A stretch of 64,000 nucleotides of DNA from Candidatus Woesearchaeota archaeon (GTDB lineage: Archaea; Nanobdellota; Nanobdellia; Woesearchaeales; ARS49), in NCBI GenBank assembly GCA_019323015.1, contig JAHWHY010000004.1:10907-74906 (forward strand), given 5' to 3'. The notes beneath the pieces were generated by a model. It did not search any database. It was not told the DNA's origin and saw only the letters and a list, made by a program, of their open reading frames with translations. Position 1 is the first letter of the stretch; each line of letters starts with the position of its first letter. Positions 10,850 through 54,777 of this stretch are shown piece after piece. Both the position numbers and the translations under genes were made by a program.

Positions 10850-10862
10850 GCGGGGTTGCCGG
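10850..10862 (+). repeat. 13-nt exact copy of the tRNA-Leu(UAG) 5' end (GCGGGGTTGCCGG), 64 nt upstream of the tRNA body
   Basis: Identical to 10914-10926. The intervening 51 nt contains CCCCGC(G), which is complementary to both copies, plus a CTGAAC/GTTCAG hairpin. Confidence 0.7.
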
Positions 10863-10913
10863 CAAATCTGAACAAGTTCAGAAAGCCGTCATCCCCGCGT
10901 TCGCTGCGCTCAC

Positions 10914-11144
10914 GCGGGGTTGCCGGAGTGGCCAAACGGGTCAGGCTTAGGCAAGTTGTTTTTCAGGTATGCTGAGTCCAGAAATGGGCGATGACTTGAA
11001 GACACCTGATGGCTTAGTGCCTACGCAGGTTCGAATGTGAGGGACTGCACCCTACACGTACTGGCGTACGGTCAGGTGCTCCTGGCGGAGACCTGACGGG
11101 ACATGTGATCATGTGATCTCTCATCGAAAGTCCTGCACCCCGCA
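10914..11144 (+). tRNA. tRNA-Leu(UAG), class II, with two introns (canonical 37/38, 10952-11003; T-loop 59/60 region, about 11037-11131); the 5' exon could instead start at 10850
   Basis: Hand fold: acceptor GCGGGGT/ACCCCGC, discriminator A, anticodon stem TCAGG/CCTGA, loop CTTAGG..A, long variable arm, T arm GCAGG-TTCGAAT-[95 nt]-CCTGC. Spliced length is 84 nt. Confidence 0.75.
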
Positions 11145-30876: not shown

Positions 30877-32361
30877 TTACAAAGTCTTTAAACCTGCATT
30901 TTTAAGCAATTTAAGGATTTCCGCCTCTTTCAAATCCCTTGAGACCTGAGCCATCAAGGCAAAATTCTTTTTCAATCCAATATTAGTACCTTCAGGAGTC
31001 TCACTAGGGCACAATCTTCCAAGATGCGTCGCATGCAATTCTCTTGCCTCAAAATTCTCCTGCGTGTTAGACAACGGAGAACCAACCCTCTGCAAGTGAC
31101 TGATGGTATTAAGATAATTAACTCTCTGGATTCTCTGAGAAATACCTTTTCTTCCGCCAACCCAGTTTCCTGTAGCCATAGCAGAATATATTCTTGATGT
31201 AAGCAATTTATCTCTAATGATAATCTTTATACTTGGGAATTTTCCTCTCTTAACAATCCTCTGAAAATTATATAATAGGTCACCAATCAAGACTTTCAGA
31301 TTAGTCCTGAAAAGATCTGCCAAAAGATCGCCAGACATCTTAATACGCTTGTTCATGTAGTGATCCTTGTCATCCTTTGGTGTCTCGCCAGTGCTCACTG
31401 AAATAAATTTCCTGAGCATCTTACATAAGTTATACGCTTTCTGCATCCTGTCATCCTGCTTTGTGCCGACATGAGGAAGAAGATACTTATCAACAATTTC
31501 CTGAATCCTTTCAAGCCGAATCTCTTTTGATTGTGTGATTCCAATCTTCTTTGCAATATAATCCATAGCTTCCTCAGGAGACTTGATGTTTGCAAATTCA
31601 AACAAGTTGATAAGAACCTCGTCATATTGTTTTTGTTTAGAAATAATCTGCATTATTTCCTCATCCTTGATGAGGCCTAATGCCTTGATGACAACAACCA
31701 AAGGAATACGCTTGACCCTTGTGAACGTAAGATAATAAAGCCCGTCTTTCAATCTTTCAACAGTGTGAGGAATCTTGTAAGGGCCGCTCTCTGAAAAAAT
31801 CTTGCCAAGATACGGGCTGATGCCGGTCTTTTGCGGCTCAACCAAGAACCTGTTTGCTGCTAAATCCTCTATATTAACCAAGACTCTCTCAGTGCCGTTG
31901 ATAATGAAATAACCGCCAGGGTCATCAGGATCCTCGCCTTTATCAACAAGCTCGTCCTTGTTCAGCTTGTTTAAGTGGCAGAAATTGCTCTTAAGCATTA
32001 TAGGAAGACTTCCAATCTGCGTGGTAAAAGTCTCTCTTTGGACATTATTAATATGAGAACTAACTTCAATAAAAACAGGCGCAGCATAACTGATTTTTCT
32101 CAGTCTTGCCTCAACAGGAAAAATAGGTCTCTTAGAACCGTCTGCCTCTGTAATCTCCGGCTTTTCAATCCATATCTTATCTAAGCGGATTTTGAAGCTT
32201 TCAACATTAGGAGGAATAATTGTCGGTTCAATTGTCTTGTTTTCCTCAATTATTTTTTGCAGCTCTTTTTCAACAAAATAATTAAAGCTCTCAATATCTG
32301 AAAGTACAAAAGAATTCTCATCAAAATACTTCTCGATCAAAATCTTTGAGTAATTAGGCAC
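30877..32361 (-). CDS. rpoB2: DNA-directed RNA polymerase subunit B'' (N-terminal part of split RpoB)
   Basis: GYFIINGTERVLV and the HLGRLCPSETPEGTNIGL blocks. Confidence 0.9.
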   Translation of the reverse strand: MPNYSKILIEKYFDENSFVLSDIESFNYFVEKELQKIIEENKTIEPTIIPPNVESFKIRLDKIWIEKPEITEADGSKRPIFPVEARLRKISYAAPVFIEVSSHINNVQRETFTTQIGSLPIMLKSNFCHLNKLNKDELVDKGEDPDDPGGYFIINGTERVLVNIEDLAANRFLVEPQKTGISPYLGKIFSESGPYKIPHTVERLKDGLYYLTFTRVKRIPLVVVIKALGLIKDEEIMQIISKQKQYDEVLINLFEFANIKSPEEAMDYIAKKIGITQSKEIRLERIQEIVDKYLLPHVGTKQDDRMQKAYNLCKMLRKFISVSTGETPKDDKDHYMNKRIKMSGDLLADLFRTNLKVLIGDLLYNFQRIVKRGKFPSIKIIIRDKLLTSRIYSAMATGNWVGGRKGISQRIQRVNYLNTISHLQRVGSPLSNTQENFEARELHATHLGRLCPSETPEGTNIGLKKNFALMAQVSRDLKEAEILKLLKNAGLKTL

Positions 32362-37098: not shown

Positions 37099-37901
37099 AC
37101 GCCTGCACCTGCAAACTGCTTAAATGCTCTCTTGTAAATCATCTGGCTAAGGAAATAAAGCAAAACAATCCAGACTAACTGCAAACCAACCTGTTCTAAA
37201 ACACCAAATTTCGTGAATTCCCCTAAATAAATCTGAATAGGAACATACCTAACATACTGAAACGGCAAAAAGTTAGATGCATACTGCATCCAGACAGGGA
37301 AAAAACTCAAAGGAATCATTCCCCCGCTAAGGAACAAAAGCAATGTTCTCCTGACTCTTCGTAATCCTTCAATCTTTTTCAGCCAAAACGCACTCAAGCC
37401 GACATTAAAACTGATAAAAAACGCCAGCAAGAACGCAAGCATAACTGAAACAAGGAACATGACAAAGTTGAAAGCAGAAGCTACTGTTAAGCCAAAGAAA
37501 AAAAAGCCAATAAAAAACACAGGAATCATCTGCAAGACAATACCCAATGAATTAATCCCTATCTCAAACGCCAGATGCTGCCACATAAACCTCATTGGAT
37601 AAGTAAACATAGTAATTATGTGGCCCCTTCTCACATCCTGTGAAATCCACTTGTCAACATCACACCAGACAAAAAATCCAACAATCATGCTCAAGACATA
37701 ATACTGGATTAAAGCAGGAAAATCAAATCCTCTGATTATCTCTTGTCCTGTGTAAGCATAGATAGCCTGCCAAAGAAAATAATAAATTATCAAAGACAAT
37801 GGAACAGTTATCAAAGTAATGATAAAGTGAAACCTATACTTAATTCCAACCTGTAATCCTACCTTGGCCTGCGCCATATACGCCTTTATTGTTGATATCA
37901 T
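37095..37901 (-). CDS. ABC-2 family transporter permease
   Basis: Polytopic membrane protein, translationally coupled (4-nt overlaps) to both the ATPase and the second permease. Confidence 0.65.
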   Translation of the reverse strand: MISTIKAYMAQAKVGLQVGIKYRFHFIITLITVPLSLIIYYFLWQAIYAYTGQEIIRGFDFPALIQYYVLSMIVGFFVWCDVDKWISQDVRRGHIITMFTYPMRFMWQHLAFEIGINSLGIVLQMIPVFFIGFFFFGLTVASAFNFVMFLVSVMLAFLLAFFISFNVGLSAFWLKKIEGLRRVRRTLLLFLSGGMIPLSFFPVWMQYASNFLPFQYVRYVPIQIYLGEFTKFGVLEQVGLQLVWIVLLYFLSQMIYKRAFKQFAGAGV

Positions 37902-41092: not shown

Positions 41093-41163
41093 TCCCTGCT
41101 CTCAGAGTCGAACTGAGATGCGCGGGGTTACAGCCCACTGCTTTACCGTTAAGCTAAACAGGG
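41093..41163 (-). tRNA. tRNA-Tyr(GUA), intron-less
   Basis: Hand fold: C1-G72 pair (an archaeal/eukaryal Tyr identity feature), anticodon stem GTGGG/CCCGC, loop CTGTAAC, T arm CTCAG-TTCGACT-CTGAG, discriminator A. Confidence 0.85.
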
Positions 41164-51498: not shown

Positions 51499-53247
51499 AT
51501 GTTAAAAAGAGGGTTGAGCTTACTAATATTCTTAATTCTGTTATCCAGTGCTGTATGCGCTTGGTCTGATTTGAACACAACTCAAGTTTATGAAGGATCG
51601 GCACCTTCTATGGGGCTTTTAATCGACCCATCTAATTTAAATTTAACAATTACCGATGTTTTACTAAATACTACTAATGTAACAATAACAGATGCTTCTG
51701 CAAATGGCTGGCAAGCTAATTGGAGTTTATACCAAGCACATTGGTATGGTAATCAAATTCCGCCAAATATGTTTGGACAGGCTTTGTTTAAATTTATTAT
51801 CGCTGTGCCTTTAGTTAATGCAGACATTAATGTGACTTTTTTAGTTATGCGAGTTAATAATGATAGTAGTATAGAATTCGAAAATGAAACTATTACTTTC
51901 TTAAACGATTCAACTTCTCCAGTTCTAGCCAGTTTGAATCCTAGCAATGCGACACTGGCAAACTCAATGCAGACAATCACAGCAAATGTGCAAGAGAATG
52001 AATCACAACTACAAAATGTAACATATACTTATGGGGCCTGCAATGGAACAAATACTACTATTGTATTAACATGCAATGGAAGCATATGCACAGGCACAGC
52101 AGATTTCACAAACTGCAATGAAGGAAATACAACATGGTATGCTTTTGCTGCAGCAAATAATGTAGGCGGCGTAACAACAATATTGGGAAACATAACATTC
52201 CATGGCATACCACCAAATGTGACTGCAGTTACACCAACACCAGGAACAATGTACACTGCATCAGAAGCAATATACATCACAGCAGATGTGACAGATGATA
52301 CAAATGTAAGCAAGGTAAGGGCAGACGTGACTTATCCAAACAGCACAACAGTTCCATTACAGCTAAATCTTGCAACAGGAAACAAATACAGCAAGTTATT
52401 CAATGCACCGAATATAATGGGGCAATACAATGTAACAATAGTTGCAAATGACACTTCTGGAAACACAAACAATTCACAAAAAACAAACTTTAAGATAGTG
52501 CCAGACTACACATTCACAGTTGCTTTAAATCCATCAACAGTGCGGCCAGGAAGAACAGTTGTTATAAGCGGAACAGTAAAACTGGCAAATGGCTCAGACA
52601 TACCTGAAAACAAAACAGCAATAGACGTGCAAGGCACAGAAACAAATGTTACATTAACAAACGGCACATTCAGCCATACATTCAACGCTCCCCAGACCAT
52701 AGGAACATATAACATATATATAAAAGTATATGCAAACAGCGGATACAATTATTCATCAATGAAAAAACTAACAGTAAGAAATCCAGACACAGGATCCAGC
52801 GGAAGCGGCTGGGGATGGGACTTTGATGACTTTGAAGGAAGCGGAGGAGTATACATAGATGAAGACTCAGGAGTTACAGAAGCACCAGAAGAACCAGCAG
52901 AAACAACTGAAGACTCAGGGGTTACAGAAGCACCAGAACAGGAAGACGCAGGAATGATTGAAGAAGAGCCAACACCAGAAGAAGTAATAGATGAAATACT
53001 AAGCAAGCCAGGAAACCAGATAACAGGCTCTGCAGTAGGAATAGGAACAGGAACAACAGCACTCGCAATGATACTATTAGCACTTGGACTTGCAACACTG
53101 GCATACTCAAACGTAAGAATAAGAAATCACGTGCACAAGTTTGCAAAAGAAAAAGTAGGAAGCAAATTCAAGAAAAAAGCTCCAAAAGAAACAGGGTTTT
53201 CTGACCAAGAGTGGGAAGATTACTTCAAAAGACTGAGAGAAGATTAG
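51499..53247 (+). CDS. Secreted, sequon-dense (N-x-S/T) surface protein with a C-terminal TM anchor and cytoplasmic tail
   Basis: Signal peptide, dozens of N-x-T/S sequons, repeated SGVTEAPE acidic linker, and ITGSAVGIGTG plus a TM near the C-terminus. Confidence 0.65.
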   Translation: MLKRGLSLLIFLILLSSAVCAWSDLNTTQVYEGSAPSMGLLIDPSNLNLTITDVLLNTTNVTITDASANGWQANWSLYQAHWYGNQIPPNMFGQALFKFIIAVPLVNADINVTFLVMRVNNDSSIEFENETITFLNDSTSPVLASLNPSNATLANSMQTITANVQENESQLQNVTYTYGACNGTNTTIVLTCNGSICTGTADFTNCNEGNTTWYAFAAANNVGGVTTILGNITFHGIPPNVTAVTPTPGTMYTASEAIYITADVTDDTNVSKVRADVTYPNSTTVPLQLNLATGNKYSKLFNAPNIMGQYNVTIVANDTSGNTNNSQKTNFKIVPDYTFTVALNPSTVRPGRTVVISGTVKLANGSDIPENKTAIDVQGTETNVTLTNGTFSHTFNAPQTIGTYNIYIKVYANSGYNYSSMKKLTVRNPDTGSSGSGWGWDFDDFEGSGGVYIDEDSGVTEAPEEPAETTEDSGVTEAPEQEDAGMIEEEPTPEEVIDEILSKPGNQITGSAVGIGTGTTALAMILLALGLATLAYSNVRIRNHVHKFAKEKVGSKFKKKAPKETGFSDQEWEDYFKRLRED

Positions 53248-54425
53248 ATCTTCTCTGCCTTTAATGAAACAATCGAGTGATAGTTTCCAAGACTTGTTTT
53301 TGCAGGAACAAACAAGCTAAAATACAAGCTTAATTCTTCCCCAGGGTTCAATACAAACGTCTCATCTAAATCCCCAAAATTCTCATTATCAGAACTTATC
53401 TTCAAATTATCTGCACTAATCTTGCTATCATCGAAAACCAAATCATTTGCTTCTAAATAAAGATTCAAATCAACATTGCCTGTATTCTTGACAACTGCAT
53501 TAGTTTTTGCAACAGCTTCTTTGCCAGGCAGAGTAGAAAACTGAATCTTATTCGAAGTTACTGTGAAATCTAATAGCTCAAGATACTCAAAGAATAACTT
53601 ACTGCCTGCCACATTAATGGAGTAATTGCCTGGGCTTAAGTCATGCTCCAGTTCCACAAAACCCTCATAAGTATCATTATGAGTATTATTCAAGACAATA
53701 GTTTGGTTAAGGAAAGTTGCACTCACTTCATCAGAAGCAACTGCAACAATCCTAACCTTTCGCTTTCCGCCGCTCACAGGCCGAATCTGGGTTCCTTTTT
53801 TGCTAGAATCATCATCAACATCCAGCGTAACAGAAGAAACATTGCCAGTGGAATTCGTTACGTTAACCACAATCTTTATTGAATCAGGGTCTGAAAAATC
53901 AGGAACTGCCTCAACAAAATCAGCAGAGTTATTATTAGAATCCTTTTTTCTCAACAAGACCTTTCCTTCCTTGACATCAACAGCAGGCGAACCTTCAAAC
54001 AAGTTATTCTTTATTCCAGAAGCAGAGCCCCAGCCAACAGCATCAATAACTGTGCCATTAGAATCTTTTAAAGCAACACCGCTGTTATCATTATTCATGG
54101 TAATAGTTTCTGTATGGTCAGCATCACGCCAACCAGAATTCTTAGAATTATTCCAGCCAGTATCAGCAACAAGGTAATATCCCTTGGCCTTGATAATAGA
54201 ATTGGCAGGAATCACTGCATCCTTCGCAGAAGTCTCTGTAGCAATGATCCACCTGCCAATATCTATAGCTGAGGCAGAGGGGTTGTGCAGTTCAATGGCC
54301 TCAGAAGAAGTCTCACTTGTCTCAGGGTCATAAAAGACCTGATTGATGTAAACAGCTGATACAAAGTTTGGCAAAATTATCAGCATAAGCAAGATTGTTA
54401 ATATTGTTTTGTTCATATTATTCAC
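53244..54425 (-). CDS. Secreted lamin-tail-domain (LTD) protein
   Basis: Signal peptide followed by VYINQVFYDPETSETSSEAIELHNPSASAIDIGRWII, typical of LTD. Ig-like C-terminal region. Confidence 0.65.
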   Translation of the reverse strand: MNNMNKTILTILLMLIILPNFVSAVYINQVFYDPETSETSSEAIELHNPSASAIDIGRWIIATETSAKDAVIPANSIIKAKGYYLVADTGWNNSKNSGWRDADHTETITMNNDNSGVALKDSNGTVIDAVGWGSASGIKNNLFEGSPAVDVKEGKVLLRKKDSNNNSADFVEAVPDFSDPDSIKIVVNVTNSTGNVSSVTLDVDDDSSKKGTQIRPVSGGKRKVRIVAVASDEVSATFLNQTIVLNNTHNDTYEGFVELEHDLSPGNYSINVAGSKLFFEYLELLDFTVTSNKIQFSTLPGKEAVAKTNAVVKNTGNVDLNLYLEANDLVFDDSKISADNLKISSDNENFGDLDETFVLNPGEELSLYFSLFVPAKTSLGNYHSIVSLKAEKI

Positions 54426-54438
54426 CTCGTTTAGTGTG

Positions 54439-54546
54439 CGCCTGGGACGGGATTTTCGCCCGCTTAGTTCGAGATTCGAACCCGCAGGACCTTGGTAGGT
54501 CAGGGATCCTTAGTCCCTCGCAATTACCAAGTTATGCGACCCAGGC
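54439..54546 (-). tRNA. Class II tRNA with apparent anticodon AAG (Leu box) and discriminator G73; one intron in the T-loop region (54452-54473)
   Basis: Hand fold: GCCTGGG/CCCAGGC acceptor, anticodon stem AGGGA/TCCCT, loop CTAAGGA (anticodon at 54509-54511), variable-arm hairpin GACCT-ACCA-AGGTC, T arm GCGGG-TTCGAAT-[22 nt]-CCCGT. Spliced length is 86 nt. Confidence 0.65.
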
Positions 54547-54582
54547 ATAAGTTTTATATACTTGTAGTGCTTTATTACAAGT

Positions 54583-54610
54583 ACCTTGGTAGGTCCTAAG
54601 TTATGCGACC
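54583..54610 (-). other. tRNA-derived fragment: two 13-nt segments of the adjacent tRNA (variable-arm and D-arm parts) fused with the anticodon arm missing
   Basis: ACCTTGGTAGGTC (= 54488-54500) + CT + AAGTTATGCGACC (= 54529-54541). Lies 37 nt upstream of the tRNA 5' end. Confidence 0.6.
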
Positions 54611-54777
54611 TTGGTTTTCTTTTATTTTTTTTATTTTAAAATCAGTTTCTGAGAAAAAGACAGAGATATTTCCAGAAAACCGAAAGAATTCTGGTTAATC
54701 CAAAAGAATTTTAGTTATACTGCAAAAGAGGCGAAAGAATTTCAAGAAATATGAAAGAAAAAAGATAAATTAAAAGC

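Follow-up and report, generated by a model that had tools for sequence, protein, structure and literature searches.

Genes and features at the locus

The window analysed here is a stretch of 64,000 nucleotides from the genome of a Candidatus Woesearchaeota archaeon. The subject of this report is a tRNA gene on its minus strand, called here tRNA(AAG), which lies between a leader with a partial copy of the gene (fragment A) and the gene of a secreted lamin-tail-domain (LTD) protein (Table 1). It is an intact class II tRNA gene with the anticodon AAG, the discriminator base G73 and a bulge-helix-bulge (BHB) intron at position 59/60. Read from 54546 to 54439, it begins GCCTGGG TC GCAT AACTTGGTAA TTGC G AGGGA CTAAGGA TCCCT and continues G-ACCT-ACCA-AGGT-CCT GCGGG TTCGAA/TCTCGAACTAAGCGGGCGAAAA/T CCCGT CCCAGGC G, the slashes marking the ends of the intron. 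The acceptor stem has 7 bp (GCCTGGG/CCCAGGC) and the T stem is GCGGG/CCCGU, giving a 7/5 configuration; the D stem has 3 bp (GCA/TGC) and is accompanied by G18G19, and the anticodon stem AGGGA/TCCCT, which includes G30-C40, encloses the loop CUAAGGA. This loop is fully canonical (C32, U33, G37, A38). The variable arm of 16 nt contains a 4-bp hairpin, which makes the tRNA class II; the idea that this arm is itself an intron was rejected, as it is a plain hairpin without bulges.

A first-pass annotation, made from the letters of the window, had read the anticodon as A34-A35-G36, and had noted the long variable arm, a G73 where the tRNA-Leu(UAG) of the window has A73, and a 22-nt intron in the T loop at the same place as in tRNA-Leu(UAG). 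All four points hold: the anticodon is given both by the sequence and by ARAGORN (54511-54509), G73 lies at 54439, tRNA-Leu(UAG) is a real gene with A73, and both genes carry an intron at 59/60. In tRNA(AAG) the intron forms a typical BHB, which consists of a 4-bp helix (TTCG/CGAA), 3-nt bulges (AAT and AAT) on opposite strands and an outer helix (CTCG/CGGG), with the T stem on the other side. Cuts within the bulges restore the T loop UUCGAAU, which places the intron at 59/60.

Spliced in silico, the sequence is called by ARAGORN as a normal tRNA(aag) of 89 nt (with CCA) and folded by RNAfold into a cloverleaf of -38.4 kcal/mol. It has the 7-bp acceptor stem, the D arm, the anticodon arm and the T arm, U8, G18G19, U33 and the T-loop pattern TTCRANY of a tRNA. 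On the unspliced DNA, ARAGORN calls tRNA-Leu(aag) with the T arm misplaced and the 3' end at 54460, which is wrong; the first-pass annotation had the true end, 54439. The Rfam tRNA model (RF00005) gives the unspliced gene 20.8 bits against a gathering score of 29 and so misses it at that threshold, because the 22-nt intron breaks the T arm. The covariance model R1 of the tRNA family described below scores 101 bits (E 6e-23) over 54439-54546. A locus identical base for base, tRNA(AAG) included, occurs in two public records (JGI 3300029267 and NCBI GCA_019323035.1), which may come from one sample; A34 is not peculiar to the one assembly.

The TATA-like box upstream is the likely promoter of a leaderless transcript, and the same ATAAAG core lies 20-27 nt 5' of the other genes of the family. 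The element nearer to the tRNA is shared with the paralogue at C3:31456 and with relatives that do not have the tRNA. Downstream, the ribosome-binding site of the LTD gene begins about 10 nt past the end of the tRNA.

Table 1. Features of the tRNA(AAG) locus, and related features elsewhere in the genome and in relatives. Positions are those of the window unless a contig (C) or locus (L) is given
Feature	Position	Strand	Remarks
tRNA(AAG), whole pre-tRNA gene	54439..54546	(-)	108 nt; class II, anticodon AAG, G73, CCA not encoded; from sequence, ARAGORN and R1 model
Exon 1	54475..54546	(-)	72 nt; acceptor 5' strand, D, anticodon and variable arms, T stem 5' strand, T-loop 54-59
Anticodon A34 A35 G36	54509..54511	(-)	loop C-U-A-A-G-G-A, U33 and G37 present
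Intron at 59/60	54453..54474	(-)	22 nt; hBHBh' motif, read from sequence; helices covary in the family
Exon 2	54439..54452	(-)	14 nt; T-loop 60, T stem 3' strand, acceptor 3' strand, G73 at 54439
TATA-like box TAATAAAG	54570..54577	(-)	putative promoter, from sequence; centred at about -27 from the tRNA 5' end
Second TATA-like element TATATAAAA	54552..54560	(-)	at about -10; too near the mature 5' end to serve it
Leader hairpin CTTGTA-N9-TACAAG	54561..54581	(-)	compensatory changes in relatives (CTGTAA...TTACAG)
Fragment A, same-strand partial tRNA copy	54582..54614	(-)	positions about 5-17 joined to the variable-arm hairpin, anticodon arm skipped
LTD (PF00932) secreted protein gene	53244..54425	(-)	downstream; synteny anchor
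Canonical tRNA-Leu(UAG)	10914..11144	(+)	A73, variable arm of the Leu type; two introns, at 37/38 and at 59/60 (the latter 95 nt)
Canonical tRNA-Leu(GAG)	C12:51611-51710		A73, variable arm GGCTTAGTGCC
tRNA-Phe(GAA)	C22:7498-7684	(+)	class I, A73
Paralogue GAA	C3:31456-31567
Paralogue GAA	C8:70538-70650
Paralogue UAG	C3:37158-37256
Paralogue UAG	C13:30289-30403
Fragments of these four paralogues	C3:~31610-31650, C3:~37290-37330, C8:70700-70750, C13:30457-30504
Other loci with a fragment	L067, L095, L099, L100, L103, L104, L106, L119, L165-L167
Family members with pyrimidine 37 or C33	L079, L080, L086, L139, L160 (loops CTGAACC / CTCAACC), L134, L148, L153, L073, L087 (C33)
LeuRS-like gene	C12:46483-49116	(-)	887 aa
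tRNA-His(GUG), two distinct genes	C3:31162-31232 and C12:54230-54300
tRNA-Tyr(GUA), two distinct genes	C11:51999-52069 (window 41093-41163) and C11:84972-85099
Conserved 5' leaders of the three canonical tRNA-Leu genes	window 10850-10913; C12:67134-67196; C12:~51711-51760

Serine-like identity

By its RpoA' and RpoB' the genome belongs to Candidatus Woesearchaeota (DPANN). It is a metagenome-assembled genome (MAG) of 1.15 Mb in 22 contigs with 38.5% G+C, about 95% complete. Our own tRNA scan, which looked through the whole genome for an acceptor stem and a T stem with an optional BHB at 59/60, recovered some 41 tRNA genes, the majority of which are interrupted by between one and four introns. 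As the first-pass annotation had proposed, the Leu and Ser tRNAs were inventoried and tRNA(AAG) was scored with isotype models. Canonical tRNA-Leu genes with the anticodons GAG, UAG and CAA and canonical tRNA-Ser genes with GCU, GGA and UGA stand beside tRNA(AAG). The three tRNA-Leu genes have A73, a common body (GCGGGG.UGCCGGAGUGGCCAAACGGG) and a variable arm GGCUUAGUGCC with the Leu-type motif GGCTTAGTGCC, and the three tRNA-Ser genes all have G73.

Covariance models were built from the canonical tRNA-Ser (8 sequences) and tRNA-Leu (5 sequences) of this lineage and scored on unspliced DNA. They give tRNA(AAG) 45.2 bits as Ser and 24.7 bits as Leu; as controls, Ser(GCU) has 99.8/46.5 bits (Ser/Leu) and Leu(GAG) 24.9/94.8. 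In every family member scored by both, the Ser model is ahead. Conversely, the R1 model finds the canonical tRNA-Ser of the genome at 57-58 bits and the canonical tRNA-Leu at 24-38 bits, and an nhmmer profile of the five paralogues of the genome scores its tRNA-Ser at 18.4, 15.9 and 11.5 bits against 8.1, 5.1 and 5.0 for its tRNA-Leu. The D arm (TCGCATAACTTGGTAATTGCG) has BLAST matches to canonical tRNA-Ser (CGA, UGA, GCU and GGA) in four related genomes.

With canonical archaeal tRNA-Ser the gene shares G73, the pairs G1-C72, C2-G71 and C3-G70, a D arm that is almost the same and has a stem of 3 bp, the long variable arm and G30-C40. It differs in having no Ser anticodon (NGA or GCU), in its 59/60 intron, in the sequence of the variable arm, in the C at position 9 and in its model score (about 45 against about 100 bits). 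As a tRNA-Leu, it has a fitting anticodon and lacks A73, the Leu variable-arm loop and the higher Leu score. Archaeal Leu identity consists of A73 and a sequence-specific variable-arm loop (A47c G47d, U47h), G73 is an antideterminant for the LeuRS of H. volcanii, and exchange of A73 for G73 converts Leu identity to Ser identity (PMC9976931). The determinants of both bacterial-type and archaeal SerRS are G73 and G30-C40, and the anticodon is ignored by SerRS (PMC9976931), which makes a tRNA of Ser identity with a non-Ser anticodon possible.

We conclude that tRNA(AAG) is not the tRNA-Leu of the cell. Every sequence test speaks for descent from a tRNA-Ser, and by these features SerRS probably charges it. 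A tRNA-Sec is ruled out by the anticodon, which is AAG and not UCA, by the 7/5 rather than 9/4 configuration and by the lack of a SepSecS match in the genome.

Meaning of the CUU codon

CUU is the commonest Leu codon of the genome (26%, against 5% for CUC; 6378 CUU against 1118 CUC). RpoA' and RpoB' together contain 48 CUU codons, and the residues aligned with them in 239 homologues are L (72%), I (14%), F (4%), V (3%) and M (2%). In the columns that are at least 80% conserved, CUU stands at 26 Leu, 2 Phe, 1 Ile and 0 Ser; in the same two proteins the residue opposite UUU and UUC is Phe, and that opposite CUA and CUG is Leu. The test is blind to low-level ambiguity, but it shows that CUU still means leucine and excludes reassignment. 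tRNA(AAG) is also not the sole reader of the codon, as the canonical A73 tRNA-Leu(GAG) reads CUU and CUC.

The first-pass annotation had thought a serine-charged tRNA reading CUU, with partial reassignment or ambiguity of the codon, the most interesting of its options, and had suggested this very comparison of conserved columns. The Ser-like identity stands (G73, the GCC start, the D arm, G30-C40 and the model scores), and the codon reassignment does not. That CUU has passed wholly or largely from Leu to Ser, for which the Ser-like identity of an AAG tRNA is the only argument, is next to impossible given the alignments, the rank of CTT among the Leu codons, the presence of tRNA-Leu(GAG) and the absence of tRNA(AAG) from the nearest relative (see below). 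In agreement with our codon test, the only new sense-codon changes highlighted by a survey of some 250,000 genomes for alternative codes are bacterial reassignments of arginine codons (PMC8629427).

A tRNA family in Woesearchaeota

The first-pass annotation missed that tRNA(AAG) belongs to a large family whose usual anticodon is GAA. Its own genome holds five class II paralogues that have G73, an acceptor beginning with GCC and a short intron at 59/60, two with GAA, two with UAG and tRNA(AAG) itself. These features, with a non-Ser anticodon, define the family, which was captured in the covariance model R1. Within the same taxonomic family 61 genomes from 29 genera were searched, and R1 has matches in all 61, at 3-19 per genome with canonical tRNA-Ser counted in, and BLAST finds members in another family of the order as well. 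The covariance model is needed for this, since BLAST of the 108-nt gene against 40 relatives gives few full-length matches; in five congeneric reference genomes BLAST found no close homologue of its backbone.

All 86 distinct members have G73. The acceptor starts with the Ser-type GCCG, and its first four pairs are almost fixed as G-C, C-G, C-G and G-C, as in tRNA-Ser, while pairs 5-7 covary. Among 46 distinct sequences standard pairs form in 97.9% of the pair cells, and both sides have changed in 20 of 28 pairs; the covariation score, with both intron helices included, reaches 0.649, compared with 0.178 in shuffles and no more than 0.082 with slid partners. Helix 5 of the intron is 99.4% paired across these members and helix 6 is 89.7% paired, with 4/4 pairs changed on both sides. 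Covariation of this kind marks the family as a functional RNA family under structural selection. It also speaks against decay of tRNA(AAG), which the first-pass annotation had considered: all its stems and the splice motif are intact, although the gene is dispensable, as the closest relative lives without it.

The anticodons of the 86 members are GAA (32), GAG (13), UAG (10), GAU (7), AAG (5), CAA, CAG and GUC (4 each), UAA (2), UAC, CAC, GAC and GCC (1 each), and GCU (1, a true tRNA-Ser). A35 is present in 80, and nearly all would read NUN codons (Phe, Leu, Ile, Val). A single G35A step leads from Ser(GGA) to GAA, and the other anticodons are one or two steps from GAA, which suggests a single origin followed by anticodon wandering that seldom touches position 35. 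A pyrimidine at 37 occurs in 15/86 members and C33 in 7/86, both rare in decoding tRNAs; the stems of these members are perfect.

Anticodon and presence of the gene vary between relatives

The locus was compared in ten related populations, anchored on the downstream LTD gene; percentages below are LTD protein identities. The present genome has fragment A and tRNA(AAG). Locus L165 (85%) has fragment A and an orthologous tRNA with the same acceptor stem, 98/113 identical positions and the loop CUGAAGA, that is, the anticodon GAA. In the closest relative, L164 (89%), fragment A and the promoter are followed by the ribosome-binding site, the tRNA being precisely absent in a 113-bp difference at which no obvious target-site duplication was seen. 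G002 has fragment A without this tRNA and then a different cassette (GAG), which is also found with GAA in G003 and L166, with GAG in L167 and with UAG in G004, and in G005 and G009 the site is empty. With five states among ten populations (window 54426-54650 compared with L164, L165, L116-L120, L166 and L167), the locus is a hot spot.

The orthologue in a sister population has GAA, so that AAG derives from GAA by two changes and not from tRNA-Leu(GAG). The suggestion of the first-pass annotation that the gene is a G34-to-A variant of tRNA-Leu(GAG) is not borne out on this account, nor does tRNA(AAG) have the A73 and the Leu variable arm found in the separate tRNA-Leu(GAG). Within the genus, orthologues of other members differ in anticodon too. 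With the backbone GCCGCGGUC(C/U)CCUAA..., this genome and G001 have UAG, G002 has GAG and G003 has GAA; the backbone of the paralogue at C13:30289 has UAG here and AAG in G002, G004 and G005, which indicates that AAG arose more than once. By these comparisons AAG is a recent, lineage-specific state of a labile anticodon, and the gene is accessory and dispensable at the species level.

A neutral or selfish cassette, recently inserted, without function in the cell and heading for loss, would explain the precise difference from the closest relative, the five states of the locus and the failure to find a close backbone homologue in the congeneric reference genomes. We consider this very unlikely, as all helices of tRNA(AAG) are intact, the differences from the GAA orthologue in the variable-arm stem are compensatory, and the family occurs in every genome searched and covaries strongly.

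The upstream fragment

A degenerate same-strand copy of the 5' part of the gene, with an A-rich tract and another TATA-like box in front of it, lies 40-50 nt 5' of all five paralogues and of most family members elsewhere. In the subgroup of tRNA(AAG) the fragment skips the anticodon arm yet tracks the variable arm, and it persists in relatives without the tRNA: fragment A is found without tRNA(AAG) in G002 and L164 and with the orthologous tRNA(GAA) in L165. Where the fragment covers the anticodon, this is the same as in the gene in 20 of 22 cassettes, over eight anticodons, and the match holds in orthologous sets that differ between species (UAG/GAG/GAA, UAG/AAG and UAC/CAC). In 19 of 21 cassettes the best match of a fragment among 45 family genes is its own neighbour. 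Indels specific to the fragment persist nonetheless, for example a loop CU(U/A)A-GA without G37 in four species. The matches in anticodon and sequence indicate concerted evolution of fragment and gene, either through gene conversion or because a match is selected for; a functional coupling of the two could also be the cause.

Two other relations between fragment and gene were rejected. At this locus the fragment is no 5' half of an outer tRNA, whether split or nested, since a matching 3' half is absent downstream and its acceptor-like bases cannot pair with the 3' strand; nor are fragment and gene related as template and variable repeat of a diversity-generating retroelement, the differences not being adenine-specific and the anticodons being identical rather than diversified. 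In another family of the order, two extra partial 5' copies (GCCGAGGTCGCGACC... and GCTGAGGTCGCAAACC...) lie upstream of a canonical tRNA-Ser(UGA) (L039, G028:C88).

The anticodon-matched fragment could be part of a unit in which the product is a structured RNA, possibly serylated, that acts outside decoding as an aminoacyl donor, decoy or regulator. The members with a pyrimidine at 37 or C33, whose stems are kept by covariation, the change of anticodons between orthologues within a genus, and the many bacterial allo-tRNAs that appear unused in translation (PMC5389517) fit such a role. The anticodon loop of tRNA(AAG) itself is fully canonical, however, the nearly invariant A35 and U33 point to a constraint on the loop, and neither a FemAB-type transferase nor SepSecS was found in the genome, and no partner enzyme was identified. 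On balance a role of this kind is unlikely, though worth serious thought.

Synthetases and other tRNAs of the genome

A search for a dedicated synthetase found a single gene for SerRS (C14:55627-56877) and a single LeuRS-like gene. The archaeal LeuRS model TIGR00395, which has a cut-off of 648 bits, matches the latter piecemeal, at 153, 75 and 54 bits. tRNA-Leu(GAG) is about 2.5 kb away from this LeuRS-like gene, whose tRNA-recognition domain may be unusual. The sole deaminase of the CDA fold is of the ComEB type (dCMP deaminase) and adjoins a thymidylate-synthase-like gene; the TadA model gives it 35.6 bits against a cut-off of 150. No TadA-like enzyme having been detected, A34 is probably not edited to inosine.

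No convincing tRNA-Leu(UAA), canonical or of the family type, was found in the assembly, where UUA makes up 21% of Leu codons. The gene probably lies in the absent 5% or so of the MAG; alternatively, it is disrupted beyond the reach of the scans. In a relative, G055, locus L063 holds a class II G73 tRNA of the family type with the anticodon UAA.

For the canonical class I tRNA-Phe(GAA) to mature, four introns would apparently have to be spliced out: from its D loop, anticodon loop, variable region and T loop (59/60). Two distinct genes each exist for tRNA-His(GUG) and tRNA-Tyr(GUA), an unusual number in a genome of 1.15 Mb, and one of the tRNA-His genes is situated downstream of a family tRNA(GAA), at a distance of 224 nt. 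The 5' leaders of the three canonical tRNA-Leu genes are conserved: they repeat the first 13 nt or so of the tRNA and contain a hairpin TCTGAAC-AAG-TTCAGA followed by GCCGTCA(T)CCCCGC, and together these elements form a long leader stem, which may be a processing signal.

Possible function

We lean, at somewhat better than an even chance, towards reading tRNA(AAG) as an accessory tRNA derived from tRNA-Ser and charged with serine, which either mis-decodes CUU in a minor or conditional way or has a role outside bulk translation. Transcription would start from the gene's own TATA-like box, giving a leaderless transcript from which the archaeal splicing endonuclease (EndA) would remove the intron. 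This would leave an 86-nt class II tRNA with G73, to which CCA would then be added. By the known archaeal identity rules the single SerRS would charge this tRNA and LeuRS would reject it, and A34, probably unmodified, would pair with CUU. The outcome would be a minor or conditional Leu-to-Ser mis-decoder, or a seryl-tRNA kept for another purpose than bulk translation. Efficient use in translation would put serine at the commonest Leu codon, which is hard to square with the conserved Leu residues found at CUU and argues that the tRNA is used weakly, conditionally or outside bulk translation.

Several observations weigh against charging with serine and mis-decoding of CUU. An efficiently used Ser-tRNA(AAG) would be very costly, CUU being so common. 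Retention of A35 is the pattern that would be expected of a hydrophobic cargo and not of serine, unless A35 is itself a recognition element. The Ser score of tRNA(AAG) is far below that of a true tRNA-Ser, a gap of which the intron explains part, and the LeuRS-like gene is so divergent that identity rules may differ from those of H. volcanii. Scans of metagenome contigs for exact patterns of the gene (spliced, unspliced and with any anticodon allele) found nothing.

Some of these observations would be accounted for if tRNA(AAG) were a working leucine tRNA, with a second type of class II body that has G73, is charged with Leu or another hydrophobic amino acid and reads CUU by Watson-Crick pairing. 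Leu-box anticodons are found in 38 of the 86 members and most of the others are those of Phe, Ile and Val, a drift among NUN anticodons that would be tolerable with a Leu-like cargo. tRNA(AAG) has G36-G37 as in Leu tRNAs that read CUN, and the excess of CUU over CUC, the lack of a tRNA-Leu(UAA) in the assembly and the atypical LeuRS-like gene are in keeping with this. We judge it decidedly unlikely all the same. For archaeal LeuRS G73 acts as an antideterminant, and tRNA(AAG) does not have the sequence-specific variable-arm loop of Leu tRNAs (PMC9976931); the canonical Leu genes of the same genome retain A73 and that loop; the isotype models prefer Ser; the closest relative lacks the gene, and the orthologue of tRNA(AAG) has an anticodon for Phe codons; and the family includes the anticodons GUC, GCC and GAU.

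Comparison with other mismatched tRNAs

Natural tRNAs in which body and anticodon disagree are rare, and both changes of the genetic code and deliberate mistranslation draw on them as raw material. They are known from bacteria (allo-tRNAs), fungi (the tRNA of CUG-Ser yeasts) and nematodes (nev-tRNAs). The full-text literature searched yielded no description of an archaeal case, and the present family is apparently undescribed.

Like the woesearchaeal tRNAs, allo-tRNAs are of the Ser type with a long variable arm and diverse, mostly non-Ser anticodons, and they occur patchily in uncultured hosts (PMC5389517). Some insert Ser at sense codons in E. coli and others seem unused in translation (PMC5389517). 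They are, however, bacterial and intronless with an 8/4 or 9/3 configuration, whereas tRNA(AAG) is archaeal with a 7/5 configuration and a BHB intron at 59/60; their anticodons are mainly UAU, GCG and GUC (PMC5389517) and not centred on NUN codons with GAA commonest; and the cassettes of the present family have a partial copy of the gene upstream. Nev-tRNAs of nematodes are likewise lineage-specific class II tRNAs whose anticodon contradicts the body in organisms that retain the standard code, and they are weakly expressed (PMC3333845). Unlike the Ser-derived family described here, with G73 in 86/86 members, they stem from tRNA-Leu, show A73 in each of their 115 genes and accept Leu (PMC3333845).

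The combination of Ser identity with a Leu-box or other non-Ser anticodon is found in tRNA-Ser(CAG) of CUG-Ser yeasts and in engineered and human anticodon variants of tRNA-Ser. In CUG-Ser yeasts the codon is truly reassigned and the proteins have adapted; here CUU stays Leu and the tRNA is dispensable. The intron, at 59/60 and of the hBHBh' form, resembles non-canonical BHB tRNA introns of Thermoproteales and of ARMAN/DPANN archaea (PMC4090602, PMC4033280). In a genome where tRNA genes with several introns are common it is ordinary, and the oddity of tRNA(AAG) lies in the mismatch of identity and anticodon and in the layout of the cassette.

Implications

Calls of tRNA-Leu(AAG) or tRNA-Phe(GAA) of this kind in woesearchaeal genomes should be treated with caution, as they do not denote real Leu or Phe tRNAs. 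The ubiquity of the family, the structural selection on it, its fixed Ser discriminator and its shifting NUN anticodon challenge the view that a missense tRNA charged with Ser, as these probably are, is either purged or drifts freely.

A speculative extension, which we hold decidedly doubtful, is that Woesearchaeota maintain a second, conditional decoding set, charged by SerRS and with anticodons nearly all for hydrophobic NUN codons, through which regulated Leu- or Phe-to-Ser mis-decoding would produce a statistical proteome. If so, this set might bear on the secreted surface proteins whose genes adjoin the cassettes, and the upstream fragment would be either its control part or a gene-conversion device that rewrites the anticodon.

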